Origin: Candidatus Aldehydirespiratoraceae bacterium
Lineage (GTDB): Bacteria > Actinomycetota > Acidimicrobiia > Acidimicrobiales > Aldehydirespiratoraceae
Assembly (NCBI GenBank): GCA_965221635.1
Contig: OZ244902.1
Coordinates: 1 to 64,000 of the forward strand
Length of the DNA stretch: 64,000 bases
Direction of reading: 5' to 3'
Shown here: in pieces, positions 17,116-37,081 of the stretch
Layout of the letters: the number at the start of each line of letters is the position of its first letter
Numbering within the stretch: the stretch's first letter is position 1
The notes under the pieces: model-generated
Told to the model about the DNA's origin: nothing
The model's database searches: none
The model's input: the letters and a program-made list of their open reading frames with translations, nothing else
Program-made: the position numbers and the translations under genes

Positions 17116-17877
17116 ATGTACAGCGAATTCGCAAACAAGGTCGTGGTGGTGACCGGCGCCACCAAAGGCCTGGGGCGTGCCATCGCGGACGGTTTCGCCG
17201 GCTGGGGCGCGCAGGTGGTGATCACCTCAAGGTCACAATCGGACTGCGACGCCGTGGCCGACGAGATCGCCGAGGCCCATTCGGCGCCCCGTCCGCTGGC
17301 CGTGAAGTGCGACATGAGCAACGATGCCGACGTGCTCGCCCTCACCGAGCGGGTTCACGGCGACCTGGGCGCGGTATCGGTGCTGGTGAACAACGCCGGT
17401 TACAACCCGGGGCCCGACTTCGAGCCGCTCAAGTTCGACACGTACCGCCAGGTGTTCGACACCAACGTGTGGGGGCCGGTGCGACTCAGCGAACTGGTGA
17501 TCCCCAAGATGGCGGAGTCCGGTGGCGGCAGCATCGTGAACATCACCACCGTCGGCGCCTACCGGGGGGCGTTTCCGGTGTCGGTGTACGGCGCCAGCAA
17601 GGCCGCCCTGTTGAACTACACCCAGTCGCTGGCGATGCAACACGCCGCGGCCAACGTTCGGGTGAACGCCGTGAGCCCCGGCCCGTTCCGCACGCCGATG
17701 ATGGACTCCCTGGCCGAGGCCATTCCCGGGTTCTACGACTTCGCCGCGCAGGAGAACCTGATGAAACGGGTGGGCGAACCTCCCGAACTTGTGGGCGCGG
17801 TGCTGTACCTGGCCTCGAGCCACGCCGCTTACGTCACCGGCGAGGACCACGTGGTGGGCGGAGGCTTCTTCCGCTGA
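17116..17877 (+). CDS. SDR family oxidoreductase
   Basis: Motifs VVTGATKGLGRA and YGASKAA. Confidence 0.85.
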   Translation: MYSEFANKVVVVTGATKGLGRAIADGFAGWGAQVVITSRSQSDCDAVADEIAEAHSAPRPLAVKCDMSNDADVLALTERVHGDLGAVSVLVNNAGYNPGPDFEPLKFDTYRQVFDTNVWGPVRLSELVIPKMAESGGGSIVNITTVGAYRGAFPVSVYGASKAALLNYTQSLAMQHAAANVRVNAVSPGPFRTPMMDSLAEAIPGFYDFAAQENLMKRVGEPPELVGAVLYLASSHAAYVTGEDHVVGGGFFR

Positions 17878-18055
17878 CAACCGCTCGGCGGCGCCCCCCG
17901 ACGCGCCGTCGCCACAACACCCCAGCGGCGTGTGTCACCGGCTGCGCCAACCCCGAACCGCCAACCTGGGCCGCCTGAGGCCACCTCGGTGGCGGCCTCG
18001 CCTTGCGCGGTACTGTGACCTTCGTGGACGCCCACCCCCCACAGGAGCCCCTGCG

Positions 18056-19351
18056 GTGACCAGCCGACCGATGGGGTTTCGCACCCGGGCGCTGCACTCC
18101 GGGGCCATGCCCGACCCCACCACAGGGGCGCGGGCAACGCCGATCTACCAGTCCACCAGCTTCGTTTTCGAGGACGCGGCCGATGCGGCCGACCTGTTCG
18201 CGCTGCAGAAGTACGGCACGATCTACACCCGCATCTCCAACCCCACCAACGCCGTGTTCGAGGAGCGCATGGCCAGCCTCGAAGGCGCTATCGGAGCGGT
18301 GGCCACCTCAAGCGGACAGGCAGCGGAGTTCCTTGCGGTGACCGCGCTGGCCGGTGCGGGCGATCACATCGTGTCCGCGGCGGGGCTCTACGGCGGCACC
18401 TACACACAGTTCGACGTGACCTTGCGACGCCTCGGGATCGACACCACCTTCGTGGACGGCAGCAACCCGAACGCCTTCGCCGCGGCGGTTCAACCCAACA
18501 CGAAGCTGCTGTACACCGAGATCATCTCCAACCCCTCAGGCGGCATAGCCGACCTTGTGACCCTCGGCGATGTGGCCCAGGCTCACGGGCTGCCGCTGGT
18601 GGTGGATTCCACGTTCGCCACGCCGTACTTGTGCCGGCCCATCGAGCACGGCGCCGACATCGTGTTGCACTCGGCCACCAAGTTCATCGGTGGTCACGGC
18701 ACGTCCATCGGCGGGGTGATCGCCGAAGCGGGCCGGTTCAGGTGGGATTCGGGACGGTTTCCGCATCTCACCGACCCGATAGCCAGCTACAACGGGCTGC
18801 GCTGGTGGGACAACTTCGGCGAGTACGCCTACTGCACCAAGGTTCGCGCCGAGCAGCTTCGTGACGTGGGCGCCTGCCTGTCGCCGTTCAACGCGTTCTT
18901 GTTGTTGCAAGGCCTCGAAACGCTGCCGTTGCGAATGGAGGCCCACACCGACAACGCCCGCGAGGTGGCACACCGGCTCAACGACGACCCGCGGGTGAGC
19001 TGGGTGCTGTGGGCCGGTCTCGAGTCGCATCCCGATCACGAACTGGCCAGGCGTTACCTTCCCAAGGGGCCAGGGGCGATCTTCACTTTCGGGGTGCGCG
19101 GAGGGAGGGCCGCCGGGGCGAGGTTCATCGAAGCCCTGGAGCTTGTGTCGCACCTTGCAAACGTGGGCGACGCCAAGACGCTGGTGATCCACCCCGCGTC
19201 CACCACCCATCAACAGCTCTCCGACACCGAACTGGAAGCGGCCGGCGTTTCGGCGGACATGGTGCGCATCTCGGTGGGACTCGAAGACCTGGACGACATC
19301 TGGTGGGATCTTGATCAGGCCTTGACGGCGGCCACCTCCGACGGTGAGTGA
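18056..19351 (+). CDS. metY: O-acetylhomoserine aminocarboxypropyltransferase (sulfhydrylase)
   Basis: N-terminal [10 protein letters not shown]...TPIYQSTSF of the PLP Cys/Met-metabolism family, with the lysine motif [13 protein letters not shown] at 18056 is preceded by AGGAG, and an alternative ATG lies at 18071. The upstream ORF-track start at 17789 overlaps the SDR gene and is rejected. Confidence 0.9.
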
Positions 19352-31395: not shown

Positions 31396-32610
<1,215 letters not shown>

Positions 32611-32742
32611 CGCACCCCCAACCCCAGCCCGCCCCTAGTGAGCGGCGCAGCTCTACACCATCACCAGAGTGCCGCAGGTTCAACAGAGCGGGAGGGGACC
32701 GTCCCAGGTTGCCGCAGACCCACCCGCTCGGGGGCTCCGGTG

Positions 32743-34602
32743 CTACGTCTCCCTGTCTCCGGCCGGAACCAGCTTGAGGAAGCAGGACGGCTCGGTGGTT
32801 ATTTCTCCGTGGCGCGTCCGGCGGGTTCTGGCGCGAGTCAGCAGCAGCACTCGGCGTGCCCTGGTGACGGCGACATGGAAGTCCTGAAGTTCCGCGGTTT
32901 GCTCCTCTTGCGAGGTGGCGCGGTGATGCGGAAGCTGACCCTGATTCAAGCCCACCACGGCAACCGCTCGGTACTCCCTTCCCCGTGCCTGATGGATGGT
33001 CTGAAGCCTGATCCCAGGCGAAGTGTCGACGAACCACTGTCGACGAGCCACGAAGGTGGCGAAGTTGATCCACACTTGGGCGGACACGCCTGTCTCCTGC
33101 TGGAAGGATGACCAGGAACGCATCAGCAGATCGGCGTCTGCTTCCCACGCAGCTAGTTCATCCTCGGGCGTTTCGCTTCCGGGATCAAGGCCTGAGAGGT
33201 GCTTCATGTACGAGGCGGGATCCTCAATGGGCACAAGCCCGGCAAGTTGCCTCAGTGCGTGGTCCTCCTGGCGCTCCAGAACCGAAGCGAGTTCTTCAAG
33301 AGTCTGCATCTCGCGTTCGTCTGTTCCGAGTAAACGCGTCAGACGACGCCGCGCCGAGCGGTGATGAGCCACACTGCGGAAACAGGCCACTTCGAAGGCG
33401 ACCTTTCCGATAGTGGACGCCAGCCAAGCGTTGGCGGCGCTGGAACATGCCGGTTTGTGTCCCGCCTTCCGAAAGGCGGTTTCGGTGGCACTGAGGCAGC
33501 CGGCTGACCTGCCCAACACAGCAATGCTCTCGGCTTGGATCGAGGCCGATTCTCCGGGGACGAGGAACTGCTCCGGCATACCGTCAGCCATCATGCCGAG
33601 TGCCCAATTTGCGACAAAGTCACCCTCGGTGGCCTCGTTCGCTGCTTCTGTGACCATGACCGTGCCTTGGGCTGCGTAGATGGTTGAGGACAGATCTGAG
33701 CCGAGTTGCCCAAGGGCCCGCGAGACGGTGCCGCCGAGAGATGCGATCAGCCGGGCGGAACGGAAGTTGCGAGTCAGCTCATAGCACGTGGCGTTGTACT
33801 CCTTCTCAAACCTTCTCATCAGCAGCGGGTCAGCCCCCCCAAGCCCCGCAGTTGGCGCCTTGTGATCGCCTACGATCATCGTCTTGATGTGGTCCCCGCC
33901 TTCATCAGGCGGGGGACCGATGAGCGAAGCAAGTAGCGAGTACTGAGCCGTGGTGAGATTCTGGGCTTCATCGACGATCACATGCTTGTAAAGACGGGCG
34001 AGCAATTTCCGTATTGACGCAAACTGCAGGAGTTCCTCCGCACCGGTGAGCATGCTCCCGTAATCGACGGCCCCTGTCAGGGCCAGCGTCTCGTGCCACT
34101 CCCGAGCCAGTGGAGAGGGTTCTTCTCGGGCGCGCGCCAGGTCAAGGTGATGGAGTGTCGCGTGCAGGTCCTTGGGAACGGGGCGGCCTTCGTCCACAAG
34201 GTGGCGCTCCAGCACCTCCGCTCGGTCCATGTCCCTGCTGAGCACCCCTATATCGACTGGAAGGCCAATCTTTGTGCCGTGTTGGCACAGGAGTGAGTGT
34301 GCGAAGTCGTGGATGGTTTGACAATGCACCCGGGAGTGCTCCACGCCCAAACGCTCGCGGATGCGGTCGTCCAACACCTTGACAGCCCCGATCGTGTGCG
34401 AAAGCGCAAGCACCCGAAACGGCTTACCCGTAGACTCCCGCCACAGGCGCTCGATTCGACGTGCCACCACCTCGGTTTTCCCACTGCCGGCGCTTGCGAC
34501 AACCAGAATCGCGGGAGCGTCGCTGTATACGGCCTCCCTCTGTTCAGGACTCAGCAGGTAATCGGTGGTGGAACTCATGATGATCTCACAGAAGCTTCGC
34601 AT
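32743..34602 (-). CDS. gajB: UvrD/PcrA-like superfamily-1 helicase (GajB-like)
   Basis: Walker A ASAGSGKTE, motif II VIVDEAQNL, motifs V and VI (TIHQARGREY, VAVTRARR). It lies in the low-GC island, just downstream of and overlapping the OLD-family gene. Alternative starts are ATG 34578 (7-nt gap) and TTG 34605. Confidence 0.85.
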   Translation of the reverse strand: MRSFCEIIMSSTTDYLLSPEQREAVYSDAPAILVVASAGSGKTEVVARRIERLWRESTGKPFRVLALSHTIGAVKVLDDRIRERLGVEHSRVHCQTIHDFAHSLLCQHGTKIGLPVDIGVLSRDMDRAEVLERHLVDEGRPVPKDLHATLHHLDLARAREEPSPLAREWHETLALTGAVDYGSMLTGAEELLQFASIRKLLARLYKHVIVDEAQNLTTAQYSLLASLIGPPPDEGGDHIKTMIVGDHKAPTAGLGGADPLLMRRFEKEYNATCYELTRNFRSARLIASLGGTVSRALGQLGSDLSSTIYAAQGTVMVTEAANEATEGDFVANWALGMMADGMPEQFLVPGESASIQAESIAVLGRSAGCLSATETAFRKAGHKPACSSAANAWLASTIGKVAFEVACFRSVAHHRSARRRLTRLLGTDEREMQTLEELASVLERQEDHALRQLAGLVPIEDPASYMKHLSGLDPGSETPEDELAAWEADADLLMRSWSSFQQETGVSAQVWINFATFVARRQWFVDTSPGIRLQTIHQARGREYRAVAVVGLNQGQLPHHRATSQEEQTAELQDFHVAVTRARRVLLLTRARTRRTRHGEITTEPSCFLKLVPAGDRET

Positions 34603-36316
34603 CAAGCGATGTCATCAGTTCCCTCAACGAAGACGGCCAAGTGGCTGCATCACTGTGCTTCTCGATGAGCATCCGCGCCATCATTGCACCAACGTACCCC
34701 TTCACAGTTGCCAGCATCACAAGCGTCGCCTGATTCTCGCTCAGGCCTGGCCGAACGGCGAGGCAAGCTTCTCGGCAGAGAACTTCATCAAAGCCAACCA
34801 TCATTTGTTCGAATGCGCCCTGACCCTTGTCCGAAGCCGGAGTGTCTGACCGGATCCACACGATGCGCGACTCATCTCCCTCGGCAAGTCTTCGAGCTGC
34901 GTGCAGCCCGGGGCTGTCGCTATCGCTGAACAGCAACCAGGGAATGCCCACCAGCTTTGCGAACTTCACCGCAGCATGAGCTAGCGGATCACCGAGGCTC
35001 CCCGGATCGATCACGCACACACCATTGGCTCGGGATCCGAGGGCGTGGCTGATCACGGGTGGCAGGAACGCTCGCTCGGTCGCGCCGTCGCCGACAACAA
35101 CCGCCCCGGCGAACAACAGCTCACCAAAGGGTCGCTCGACCAGCCGCTTGAGCTTCTCCATTTCTTCGACGTGCATCCCCGGTCTCAATGCACGATGATC
35201 CGCCTCAACCTCACTTGGAGCAGGGCTCAGGTCGACCACGACAGTCGCGTCTTCATCCTGGCGGAGCAGCCGGATGCAACGCGGTTCCACCGACGTGACC
35301 ACATGGGAGGAGTGCGTGGATGCGATTACTTGACCGGGAAGTCGTTCGAGCAGGCCGGCGAGCTCGAACTCTGCCTGAGGGTGCAAGTGCGCCTCGGGCT
35401 CTTCGACGAGCGTGACGGGATGAGGGCGAGTTGAAGGTCCGTCTCTACCGAGTCTCCGTTCGTAGTTAAGCCCTTGAATCTGCAATGACGCCAAACTCCG
35501 AGCGCCGGCACCATGGAGCCGTAGGGGCAGAGCGCCACGCCCGGTGTCGAGGTCGATGTCGATCGACCGGGCGAGTTCCTCGAGGCGAGTCGGCAGCGGA
35601 TTGAGAGCGGGTTCGCCCAACGACGCCATGTGCCTGCCAAGGATTTGAAGCGAATCCCGAACAGCCTGCAACGCGGCGCTCTGGGCAACGATTCTGCTGC
35701 TCAGTGCAGCCAGTTGAGCTTCAAGCTGTCTTCTTGACCGGATGTCAACTTCAAGGTCACTGAGAATTCGCCTGACAGCGGAACCTCGTTTTGAGAGTTC
35801 CTCGAACAGGTCGCGTCGGGTGTCAACGAGCTCCACCGACAGCACTGATCGCTGTTCCCGACTAAGCGCGGAGGGGCGCGACGGGAGCGCCCACCTCTCG
35901 GTTCGCTCGTCAAACTCCAGTTGGCATGTCTCGGAACGCGCCCCAAGGCCCTCGCCTGACCTGACGATGCGGGTTCGCCAAGCGAACCGCTCGATGAGCG
36001 GGCCTTCGCTGATGACCTGTGCCTTGCCCAGGCGGTCAGTGACTGACTCCGAGAAAGTCTCCTCACCCGAGGGACTCGCAGTTGGGAGCGGGGCGATCAC
36101 GACATCCACAGATGGTGCGTGTGTGGTGCCCACCGTGAAGTCGTCCACTTCCGCCGGAGCACCAAGTGCCACCGCCAGGGCGCGCAGGACCCGAGACTTC
36201 CCCGCGTTGTTGCGCCCCACCAGCAGCGTCAAGCTTGGTTCCAACCTCAGCAAGCAGTCGTCAAGACCTCGAAAATGCTGAATATGACAAGTTTCAACAT
36301 ATACAGGTGCGAACAT
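34586..36316 (-). CDS. gajA: OLD-family ABC-ATPase/TOPRIM nuclease (GajA-like)
   Basis: N-terminal AAA_15/ABC-ATPase domain with Walker A LVGRNNAGKS, ABC-signature-like LHGAGARSLASLQ, Walker B VTLVEEPE and H-loop STHSSH. C-terminal TOPRIM domain with AVVVGDGATE and FSDSDSPG acidic motifs. Total 576 aa. Confidence 0.85.
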   Translation of the reverse strand: MFAPVYVETCHIQHFRGLDDCLLRLEPSLTLLVGRNNAGKSRVLRALAVALGAPAEVDDFTVGTTHAPSVDVVIAPLPTASPSGEETFSESVTDRLGKAQVISEGPLIERFAWRTRIVRSGEGLGARSETCQLEFDERTERWALPSRPSALSREQRSVLSVELVDTRRDLFEELSKRGSAVRRILSDLEVDIRSRRQLEAQLAALSSRIVAQSAALQAVRDSLQILGRHMASLGEPALNPLPTRLEELARSIDIDLDTGRGALPLRLHGAGARSLASLQIQGLNYERRLGRDGPSTRPHPVTLVEEPEAHLHPQAEFELAGLLERLPGQVIASTHSSHVVTSVEPRCIRLLRQDEDATVVVDLSPAPSEVEADHRALRPGMHVEEMEKLKRLVERPFGELLFAGAVVVGDGATERAFLPPVISHALGSRANGVCVIDPGSLGDPLAHAAVKFAKLVGIPWLLFSDSDSPGLHAARRLAEGDESRIVWIRSDTPASDKGQGAFEQMMVGFDEVLCREACLAVRPGLSENQATLVMLATVKGYVGAMMARMLIEKHSDAATWPSSLRELMTSLDAKLL

Positions 36317-36403
36317 GCCTGAAATATACTGTTAATGTTCCCAAGAGCAAAGAGCGATCCCGACTTGCTGTCCGCCCAATGGCCGCAAGGCGGGCGAGGG
36401 GGG
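36317..36403 (-). promoter_or_regulatory. AT-rich putative promoter/5' region of the gajA-like gene
   Basis: The segment catgcctgaaatatactgttaatgttcccaagagcaaagagc is strikingly AT-rich for this genome. It lies immediately upstream of the gajA start. Confidence 0.3.
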
Positions 36404-37081
36404 TTAGGGGGCGGCGAGGTCTTGGGCTTCGGTGAAGGCCTTTTGGAGGCTGGTGGTGACCTCTTTGGAGAGGCGGGTGAGGGCGGGTCTGCTCATGCGG
36501 GTCTTTGGGGGGTGGATTGGTTCTGCGGCGACTATGGCGACCCTCACCCTTTTGGGCAGGCGGGTGCCCTCGGACATGGCCGCCTCGGTGCCGGCTATCC
36601 CCACCGGCACTATGGCCGCGCCGGTGCGTGACGCCAGCCAGCTCATGCCGTCGAACACGCCGGTGACCTCGGGGCCGCTTTGGCGGGTGCCCTCGGGGAA
36701 CACGACCATCGCCTCACCGGCGCGCAGGATCGCCTCGGCCGCTCGCATGGCTTCGCGGTCGGCTTCGCCGCGGCGCACCGGAAAGGCCCCGATTGACGCC
36801 ATGAACGCGGTGAGCACACGGTTGGGGAACAGCGATTCCTTGGCCAGCGACCGGAAACGACGCTTGCACAGCCCGCCGATGAGCGGGCCGTCGAGATTGG
36901 AGCGATGCACCGGGGCGATGATCAACGGCCCGTCGATGTTGAGATGCTGCGCACCCCGGTGCCGCACCCTGAAGTAGCGGAACGCCACCACGATCACCAG
37001 CCACCGGATCGTGCCGTACACCAGATGCGAGGCCCGTCGAGCCGCTATGGCCTGAACCCTGCGCTGCAGTTCGGACTCCAT
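36404..37081 (-). CDS. 1-acyl-sn-glycerol-3-phosphate acyltransferase (PlsC-like)
   Basis: HX4D motif PVHRSNLD and FPEGTR motif. ATG verified at 37081. The upstream ORF-track start at 37546 is rejected. Confidence 0.8.
   Translation of the reverse strand: MESELQRRVQAIAARRASHLVYGTIRWLVIVVAFRYFRVRHRGAQHLNIDGPLIIAPVHRSNLDGPLIGGLCKRRFRSLAKESLFPNRVLTAFMASIGAFPVRRGEADREAMRAAEAILRAGEAMVVFPEGTRQSGPEVTGVFDGMSWLASRTGAAIVPVGIAGTEAAMSEGTRLPKRVRVAIVAAEPIHPPKTRMSRPALTRLSKEVTTSLQKAFTEAQDLAAP

Follow-up and report, generated by a model that had tools for sequence, protein, structure and literature searches.

The first 64,000 nucleotides (nts) of contig OZ244902.1 from a Candidatus Aldehydirespiratoraceae bacterium (assembly GCA_965221635.1), hereafter the window, contain a segment at positions 32611–36403 situated between a plsC-type acyltransferase gene and icd, the gene for isocitrate dehydrogenase. 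Exactly two long open reading frames (ORFs) lie in this segment, both on the minus strand. The first, gajA (34586..36316, minus strand), begins with an ATG and encodes an OLD-family (class 2) nuclease of 576 amino acids (aa), in which an N-terminal ABC-type ATPase is followed by a Toprim plus C-terminal helical domain (residues ~395–576; 34589..35134, minus strand). The second, gajB (32743..34578, minus strand), encodes a full-size UvrD/PcrA/Rep-like superfamily 1 (SF1) helicase of 611 aa, counted from the ATG at 34578. The pair is very likely a horizontally acquired Gabija-type cassette, composed of a class 2 OLD GajA and a UvrD-like GajB, that sits as a bare ~3.8-kb two-gene insert in the short plsC–icd spacer. 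Family membership, the tight coupling of the two genes, their foreign composition, the empty site in relatives, and the occurrence of the same pair in other contexts, including a mobile element, are all directly supported. A preliminary description made from the sequence had already placed exactly two co-oriented genes between icd and a PlsC-like acyltransferase, and both the ORF listing and the Pfam matches of the flanks (Iso_dh, 2.4e-90; PF01553, 4.5e-21) agree.

A class 2 OLD nuclease and its helicase partner

Class 2 OLD systems are defined by gene context, namely an adjacent, co-oriented gene for a UvrD/PcrA/Rep-like SF1 helicase. Here, gajB is co-oriented with gajA and starts from 20 nts before to 7 nts after the gajA stop codon, depending on the start codon chosen. 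A TTG at 34605 yields a 620-aa protein and a 20-nt overlap, an ATG at 34602 a 619-aa protein, and the ATG at 34578, which the N-termini of homologs favor, a 7-nt gap; the overlap reported in the preliminary description thus holds with the TTG and gives way to a short gap with the favored ATG. This gene context, together with matches to hidden Markov models (HMMs), identifies the window pair as a Gabija system. In PADLOC, the top match of the first protein is the GajA model PDLC00067 (6.6e-70, residues 5–468), and the second matches the GajB model PDLC00132 (6.8e-74), in keeping with the early suggestion that gene order, sizes, and coupling are those of Gabija and class 2 OLD–helicase pairs.

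Ten more GajA models precede Old, AriA, and PtuA in the PADLOC ranking for GajA, and all 35 members of its clade of homologs match the same GajA model. Since the alignment to that profile ends at residue 468, the C-terminal domain is divergent. Pfam recognizes AAA_15 (3.7e-21), AAA_21, and DUF2813, and aligns the full OLD-like_TOPRIM profile to residues 401–467 with 23.1 bits against a cut-off of 23.2. An AlphaFold2 model computed from 35 homologs, with a predicted local distance difference test score (pLDDT) of 76.7, matches in Foldseek the OLD protein of Thermus scotoductus (TsOLD; 6p74, 7e-22), then Bacillus cereus GajA (BcGajA; 8u7i, 8x5i, and 8sm3, 1e-17 to 1e-19, at ~12–14% identity when the structures are aligned), followed by the retron Eco8 OLD. 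PADLOC, the Pfam domains, and the predicted fold therefore agree on the OLD-nuclease architecture of GajA that had been read from the sequence. A PDB search with the Toprim half as a single sequence gave no meaningful match, so that recognition of this half depended on the structure model and the profile.

The motifs originally singled out in GajA, that is, LVGRNNAGKS, the signature-like LHGAGARSLASLQ, LVEEPE, STHSSH, VVGDGATE, and FSDSDSPG, are all found in its translation. The ATPase residues comprise G34, G39-K40, and S41 of Walker A, the signature-like G269, G271, R273, and S277, the Walker B/catalytic E305-E306, and the H-loop H335; all are invariant in the 35 clade members, S41 nearly so. 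Equally invariant are the Toprim G432 and the DxD residues D465 and D467. The motif after Toprim β1, in the region of residues 405–414, reads D410-G-A-T-E414, and in the alignment with TsOLD, D410 falls opposite the Toprim Glu and E414 opposite the next Asp. The clade Toprim is D-G-x-x-E in 35/35 sequences, in contrast to the E-G-x-x-D/E of other OLD/Toprim proteins. Because the D410 swap is invariant across the clade, it counts as a trait of the clade, not as damage, and it may be the cause of the narrow shortfall in the Pfam Toprim score. In BcGajA, the residues concerned are E379, G409, and D432/D434 (PMC10781630), its E379 being the Toprim Glu where GajA here has D410.

Class 2 OLD proteins are ~50 aa longer than class 1, and their helical domain is associated with the Toprim fold (PMC10568477). 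GajA here, at 576 aa, compares with 578 aa for BcGajA and 528 aa for TsOLD, and its model features five helices past the DxD strand region (H502–575). The class 2 OLD proteins of Burkholderia pseudomallei (BpOLD) and of the species Xanthomonas campestris appear to have in common with it the Toprim and C-terminal helical domain with an extra Glu and Lys, the DxD, and a second acidic residue four positions past the first (PMC6755086). BpOLD employs E400, E404, D455, D457, E508, and K562 (PMC6755086), such that its E400-x-x-x-E404 would correspond to the D-G-x-x-E of GajA and its T506-x-E508 to A501-x-E503; on this presumed correspondence, the distance from the DxD to the helical-domain Glu is 36 residues in GajA and 51 in BpOLD. 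Both E503 and K539 of the GajA helical domain are invariant in the 35 clade members. Going by spacing and invariance only, they are plausible candidate counterparts of the metal-B Glu E508 and the catalytic Lys K562 of BpOLD.

TsOLD is the best solved match of GajA by sequence (8e-10) and profile (1.9e-17) as well as by fold, and its ATPase and Toprim domains are arranged as in GajA here. As TsOLD is a class 1 protein (PDB 6P74), and as weaker PADLOC matches to Old, AriA, and PtuA also exist, the gene could conceivably belong to a different OLD/ABC-ATPase system, such as class 1 OLD, PARIS AriA, Septu PtuA, or a retron-associated OLD, with an unrelated helicase as its neighbor. However, the GajA models are ahead of Old, AriA, and PtuA by at least 47 orders of magnitude, with the AriA and PtuA HMMs far below GajA. 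TsOLD is encoded by a stand-alone gene of 528 codons with no helicase partner, as is characteristic of class 1, whereas the helicase is coupled to the OLD gene here and in every homologous locus examined, and many GajA and GajB matches fall on shared contigs. The insert holds two genes only, with no AriB, PtuB/HNH, reverse transcriptase, or noncoding RNA (ncRNA) in it, and Rfam returned no match in 31–38 kb, including no retron or other ncRNA. Membership in one of these other systems is accordingly highly improbable, and a Gabija GajA remains the preferred assignment.

The second protein had been taken for an SF1 UvrD/PcrA-like helicase matching GajB, and its PADLOC match, its Pfam domains (UvrD-helicase, 9.6e-30; UvrD_C, 1.3e-12), and the presence of SAGSGKTE, DEAQ (as VDEAQN), and VAVTRARR in its translation bear this out. 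Its AlphaFold2 model (pLDDT 88.9) matches full-length UvrD/PcrA/Rep at ~1e-36 in Foldseek. With these helicases it shares all four subdomains, a similar size, and motifs Q, I, II, and VI; it differs from them in scoring ~130–139 bits against the NCBIfam uvrD/pcrA/rep equivalog cut-offs of 911–1144, in always being OLD-paired, in being foreign to the genome, and in having a motif III without the Gln and the aromatic/Arg pair. At 611 aa, GajB is of the near-canonical, full-length SF1A UvrD/PcrA type, whereas B. cereus GajB (BcGajB) is shortened to 494 aa (PMC10681800). The earlier impression that the helicase is unusually long, and hence perhaps a divergent variant, does not stand, as its length is typical of the clade (GajB ~600–613 aa, alongside a GajA of ~590 aa) and PADLOC GajB models extend to 635 positions.

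Insertion into a housekeeping spacer

An Icd-anchored scan with one genome per species gathered 80 icd loci, the nearest of which, at 85–89% Icd identity, belong to metagenome-assembled genomes (MAGs) of Acidimicrobiales, including Candidatus Aldehydirespirator. In nine related Acidimicrobiales genomes (loci L001–L007, L011, and L015), the site is empty, with spacer sequences that put the plsC stop 0–69 nts from the icd start. Homologs of gajA and gajB are absent from all 80 icd loci fetched; the pair is thus not conserved between icd and plsC. The plsC–icd adjacency in nine relatives, combined with the absence of the pair from all 80 loci, establishes the cassette as an insertion. Its borders can be located with some precision: a conserved GTAGCCTCG block before icd in the empty sites recurs as GTTAGCCTCG at 32608–32599, which places the right border at ~32610–32620, while the left border is the plsC stop. 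The nearest empty-site genomes, despite their 85–89% Icd identity, show only ~65% for the neighboring ABC transporters.

A second assembly of the same strain (L081; an ERZ26695579 contig of 2.36x coverage) exhibits the same plsC-gajA-gajB-icd order. Over 7 kb, it shows 0 mismatches to the window and differs from it by nine single-base indels, which mostly fall in short same-base runs. In the gene calls of this assembly, gajA, gajB, and icd are each fragmented by these indels, an illustration of the false pseudogenes to which low-coverage long-read contigs can give rise. Apart from this 100% identical fragment pair, the best homologs are 66% identical for GajA and 56% for GajB.

The composition of the cassette sets it apart from its host. 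Its G+C content (GC) is 0.613, compared to 0.670 in the rest of the window, and no other 3.7-kb stretch in the 64 kb falls as low; the low-GC segment of the preliminary description is real, if modest in absolute terms, and the codon statistics are more telling. GC at third codon positions (GC3) is 0.655 in gajA and 0.700 in gajB, against 0.831±0.021 (minimum 0.79) in 30 host genes. An index akin to the codon adaptation index, for which the same 30 genes served as the reference set, is 0.44 and 0.49, against 0.658±0.031 in the host. Both measures place the two genes more than 5 standard deviations (SD) off the host mean, and neither the GC profile nor the codon-usage profile is flat across the region. 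The term "AT-rich" overstates this dip: the AT-richness ascribed to the upstream region holds for a ~28-nt patch (~36% GC) directly 5′ of the gajA ATG, and not beyond it.

A very UvrD/PcrA-like helicase in a purely metabolic neighborhood is also what favors the notion of an ancestral housekeeping repair pair, a nuclease together with a UvrD paralog, that formed part of the core genome and has since disappeared from relatives. Such a history would have to accommodate nine independent empty sites and the lack of the pair at all 80 icd loci, a codon usage more than 5 SD from the host, NCBIfam uvrD/pcrA/rep scores short of the cut-offs by the distance given above, and the presence of the same pair in other genomes, at sites unrelated to this one and on an integrase/relaxase element. 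It is vanishingly improbable and, effectively, already refuted.

The homologs that make up the clade come from Actinomycetota, including Serinicoccus, Gordonia, Nocardioides, Rhodococcus, Mycolicibacterium, and Acidimicrobiales MAGs, with gajA and gajB adjacent or overlapping in every clade locus examined. In an Acidimicrobiales MAG (L090:46-11617; JBPCOD010000117.1), the pair lies directly downstream of genes for a tyrosine integrase, a LexA-like repressor, a TrwC relaxase, an MTaX1-domain protein, and a DNA methylase, which looks like an integrative conjugative or mobilizable element with several defense-type genes. This context shows integrative mobile elements to be vehicles of the clade. 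Another Gabija pair, with a GajA 55% identical, sits beside a DEAD/DUF3516 helicase gene on OZ241331.1 (L086:8001-11650); this is the genome of one of the empty plsC–icd sites (L006), and the pair is ~200 kb away from it. Among PLSDB plasmids there are no close relatives (best 28% identity), and the INPHARED phages contain no match to the pair.

In three related Actinomycetota genomes, gajA-gajB occupies a conserved site between tatA and Band_7/whiB (L082:8001-11607; L083:8001-11611, in L083/L084; L088:3775-7436). Between these genomes, the flanking proteins are 84–95% identical, GajA 76–79%, and GajB 72–82%, and the cassettes have ~0.50 GC in flanks of 0.68–0.71 GC. Since the low GC of the cassette persists at this conserved site, low GC alone does not date an insertion, and its use as proof of recency is undermined by these three cassettes at a site common to three genomes. 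Repeated allelic replacement or selection for low GC are possible reasons for the persistent 20-point deficit. The recent horizontal acquisition originally proposed for the window locus stands as an insertion, borne out by the empty sites and the codon usage, with "recent" to be taken in a relative sense only.

The two host flanks and the two spacers complete the locus. Downstream, icd (31396..32592, minus strand; likely start ATG 32592) has a GC3 of 0.87 and is 85–89% identical to its counterparts in L001–L006. Upstream lies the 3′ part of the plsC-type acyltransferase gene (36404..37000, minus strand), ending with a TAA at 36406–36404 and 64–66% identical to the L001–L006 gene lying immediately next to icd; the listed plsC ORF is over-extended at its N-terminus. 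Between gajB and icd, the ~130-nt spacer (32611..32742, minus strand) arrived with the insert, judging from the junction comparison with L001–L006. A structured RNA or terminator was considered for this spacer and rejected, its fold being no better than shuffles (z = −1.03) and Rfam giving no match. The 87-nt plsC–gajA spacer (36317..36403, minus strand) is GC-rich for its first ~35 nts past the plsC stop. Further along, it reads TTGCTC (36350–36345), a 16-nt spacer, and TATATT (36328–36323), which ends 6 nts before the gajA ATG, and gajA is without a Shine-Dalgarno sequence. This arrangement is a possible, putative −10-driven promoter that would yield a leaderless or near-leaderless gajA mRNA. 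Translation of gajB would proceed by coupling across the 7-nt gap or through the overlap.

The wider neighborhood is purely housekeeping: two ABC exporters, malate dehydrogenase, SDR, enoyl-CoA hydratase, methylmalonyl-CoA mutase, acyl-CoA dehydrogenase, and LeuA. Elsewhere in the window, ARAGORN calls a 92-nt tRNA-His(GTG) at 18063–18154 (minus strand), inside an ORF (17765–19351) for a pyridoxal phosphate (PLP) enzyme of Cys/Met metabolism (PF01053, 7e-127); this call is probably a false positive. In other lineages, the plsC–icd position is taken by a branched-chain-type ABC transporter or binding protein, or by MTHFR. In two more distant relatives (L010:9642-9959 and L012:9642-9959), a PemK/MazF-type toxin gene (PF02452, ~1e-16) lies directly upstream of icd, from which it follows that the space before icd took up accessory genes more than once. 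Transporter, MTHFR, and PemK occupants are nevertheless insufficient to call the spacer a defense hotspot.

Altered motor motifs in GajB

The elements of GajB devoted to binding and hydrolysis of nucleoside triphosphates (NTPs) are intact: Q13 of the Q-motif, Walker A GSGKT at 31–35 (G31, G33, K34, and T35), DEAQ at 203–206 (D203-E204), and VAVTRARR of motif VI (R573 and R576). Elsewhere, the protein departs extensively from its relatives. At columns at least 94% conserved in 35 homologs, it deviates 24 times (others: median 4, maximum 10), and at columns at least 95% conserved in 118 homologs, 19 times (others: median 1, 90th percentile 5, full-length maximum 8), while GajA deviates once at such near-invariant columns in either comparison. 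The clade-invariant motifs Ia, III, and V are not kept, and residues beside motif VI are also degenerate. Motif Ia changes from SYTVKAADEL to SHTIGAVKVL (Y61H/K64G/A66V/E68V), and motif V from HKAQGRE to HQARGRE (K530Q/Q532R). Further along the chain, LPDFRA becomes LPHHRA (D551H/F552H) and, beside motif VI, Y568H appears; W126H and G516F are additional non-conservative changes.

The most conspicuous of these departures concerns motif III (33820..33873, minus strand), where the consensus VGDDKQSIVSFAGADP is replaced by VGDHKAPTAGLGGADP, with the substitutions Q241A, S242P, and F246L. All 35 aligned homologs conform to VGD(D/E/A)(K/N)Q(S/A)(I/L/V)(V/I)xF(A/S)G(A/G)(D/N)x, and in the alignment with UvrD the lost Gln and aromatic residue fall on the Q and W of VGDDDQSIYGWRGA. 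In SF1 helicases such as PcrA, motif III couples ATP hydrolysis to the binding of single-stranded DNA (ssDNA). Two trivial origins of this oddity were considered. A compensated frameshift was rejected, as neither of the remaining frames brings back the QSIV consensus; comparing the DNA to that of L082 and L083 gave an ambiguous result. An assembly error is likewise unsupported: at motif III, the second assembly agrees with the window base for base, and its nine indels are all elsewhere, although a systematic error in the G7 run at ~33830–33836 remains conceivable.

GajB has thus kept its ATP-binding motifs (I, II, and VI) and has lost the conserved ssDNA-contact and coupling residues of Ia, III, and V. 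Two readings of this pattern are possible, namely, relaxed selection after transfer or a shift to an ATP-binding/scaffold role. Under the former, the system would be a decaying or partly disabled Gabija, in which ATP is no longer coupled to DNA and there is little or no defense, or GajA acts alone. The count of deviations at near-invariant columns, lopsided between GajB and GajA, speaks for decay, as does the non-conservative nature of many of the changes (Y61H, K64G, E68V, W126H, Q241A, S242P, G516F, D551H, F552H, and Y568H). A GajB/GajA distance ratio of 1.24, against 1.10±0.065 in 14 other matched pairs, and the agreement of both assemblies on the GajB sequence point in the same direction. 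Conversely, the gajB ORF runs through 611 codons uninterrupted by stops or frameshifts, Walker A, DEAQ, and the arginines of motif VI are unaltered, and GajA is clearly constrained. BcGajB, too, lacks several of the elements of UvrD and fails to unwind DNA in vitro, yet is required for defense within the complex (PMC10681800), so that loss of motor-type residues need not abolish Gabija function. On balance, decay is unlikely. The insert is better regarded as a Gabija cassette that is intact as ORFs, with the catalytic and nucleotide-binding residues of GajA conserved. Its GajB most likely keeps ATP binding and a scaffold function, and may be poor at DNA translocation. The deviation at motifs Ia, III, and V is not a defining Gabija trait; it bears on the function of the window copy.

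Mechanism, reservations, and significance

The functional templates come from the Gabija systems of B. cereus and Pseudomonas aeruginosa and from class 2 OLD nucleases (PMC10781630, PMC6755086, PMC10568477, PMC12407980, and bioRxiv 10.1101/2023.05.02.539174). Gabija of B. cereus VD045, a 4:4 complex (PDB 8SM3, 8U7I, and 8J4T), presents the same gene order, gajA then gajB, with a GajA that is an ABC ATPase–Toprim fusion (578 aa, against 576 here) and a GajB of the SF1 UvrD family. By analogy, GajA would oligomerize and bind GajB to form a hetero-oligomer. Its ABC ATPase domain would bind nucleotides, with the nuclease held off at normal NTP pools, and GajB would act as a DNA-end-sensing partner hydrolyzing (d)ATP and (d)GTP. 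The Toprim site of GajA, predicted to comprise D410/E414 and D465/D467 and probably E503/K539, would then cut invading DNA by two-metal catalysis. The presumed target is phage or other linear invading DNA with ends that are not occupied or processed by the host end-resection machinery, which would be destroyed.

Several observations weigh against a Gabija cassette of this kind. The canonical Toprim Glu is an Asp in GajA (D410), and the Pfam OLD-like_TOPRIM score lies 0.1 bit below its cut-off. The clade GajA profile reaches BcGajA with E = 4e-5 in the Walker B/H-loop region only, and the clade GajB profile reaches PcrA at 2.7e-60 and UvrD at ~1e-60, against 1.5e-16 for BcGajB. The clade is thus remote from the characterized B. 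cereus proteins, so that the transfer of mechanism is weak and its details may not carry over; the searches made found no test of a member of this actinobacterial clade. With 19–24 near-invariant positions substituted in GajB, the motif III Gln among them, the system may be impaired. A consensus promoter scan returned nothing at its thresholds, which leaves the gajA promoter to a reading of the sequence only. Lastly, neither ORFs nor Pfam reveal an integrase or transposase in or beside the insert, there is no tRNA within 14 kb of it, and the direct and inverted repeats across 32400–36700 are short, chance-level matches of which none explains the insertion. An integrase-borne island, integrative conjugative element, or prophage, marked by an integrase or transposase, a tRNA or attachment site, and flanking repeats, is therefore not what the window locus presents. 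The obvious options are that the insertion may have occurred by flanking-homology recombination after transfer from a relative, or by illegitimate recombination.

A further idea is that the actinobacterial clade works differently from the B. cereus paradigm, given its full-length PcrA/UvrD-like partner, its DGxxE Toprim, and cassettes whose GC is 6–20 points lower than that of their hosts, conserved sites included. The system could then be a true translocating helicase–nuclease, or its low GC could be functionally maintained, for example to allow control by a nucleoid-associated silencer of AT-rich DNA. This is improbable. If true, the window copy would represent a naturally occurring variant whose partner no longer has its ssDNA-motor residues while ATP binding is kept, pointing to a translocation-independent role as sensor or scaffold.

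Gabija is reported from ~8.5–15% of sequenced prokaryotic genomes (PMC10568477, PMC10781630). The window cassette is an unremarkable representative of a defense system that ranks among the commonest, with the degenerate GajB as its only point of some interest, and one further Gabija copy changes no picture. It does furnish a clean example of insertion, in that a bare two-gene defense unit occupies a housekeeping intergenic spacer with documented empty sites and no mobility gene. Beyond the locus, the clade helicase is far closer to PcrA/UvrD than to the only structurally studied GajB. A member of the clade whose GajB has the consensus motifs would be a useful second model of whether GajB is ever a real helicase. 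The window GajB, an outlier in precisely those motifs that couple ATP hydrolysis to ssDNA, is in turn a natural experiment on which GajB activities Gabija needs.

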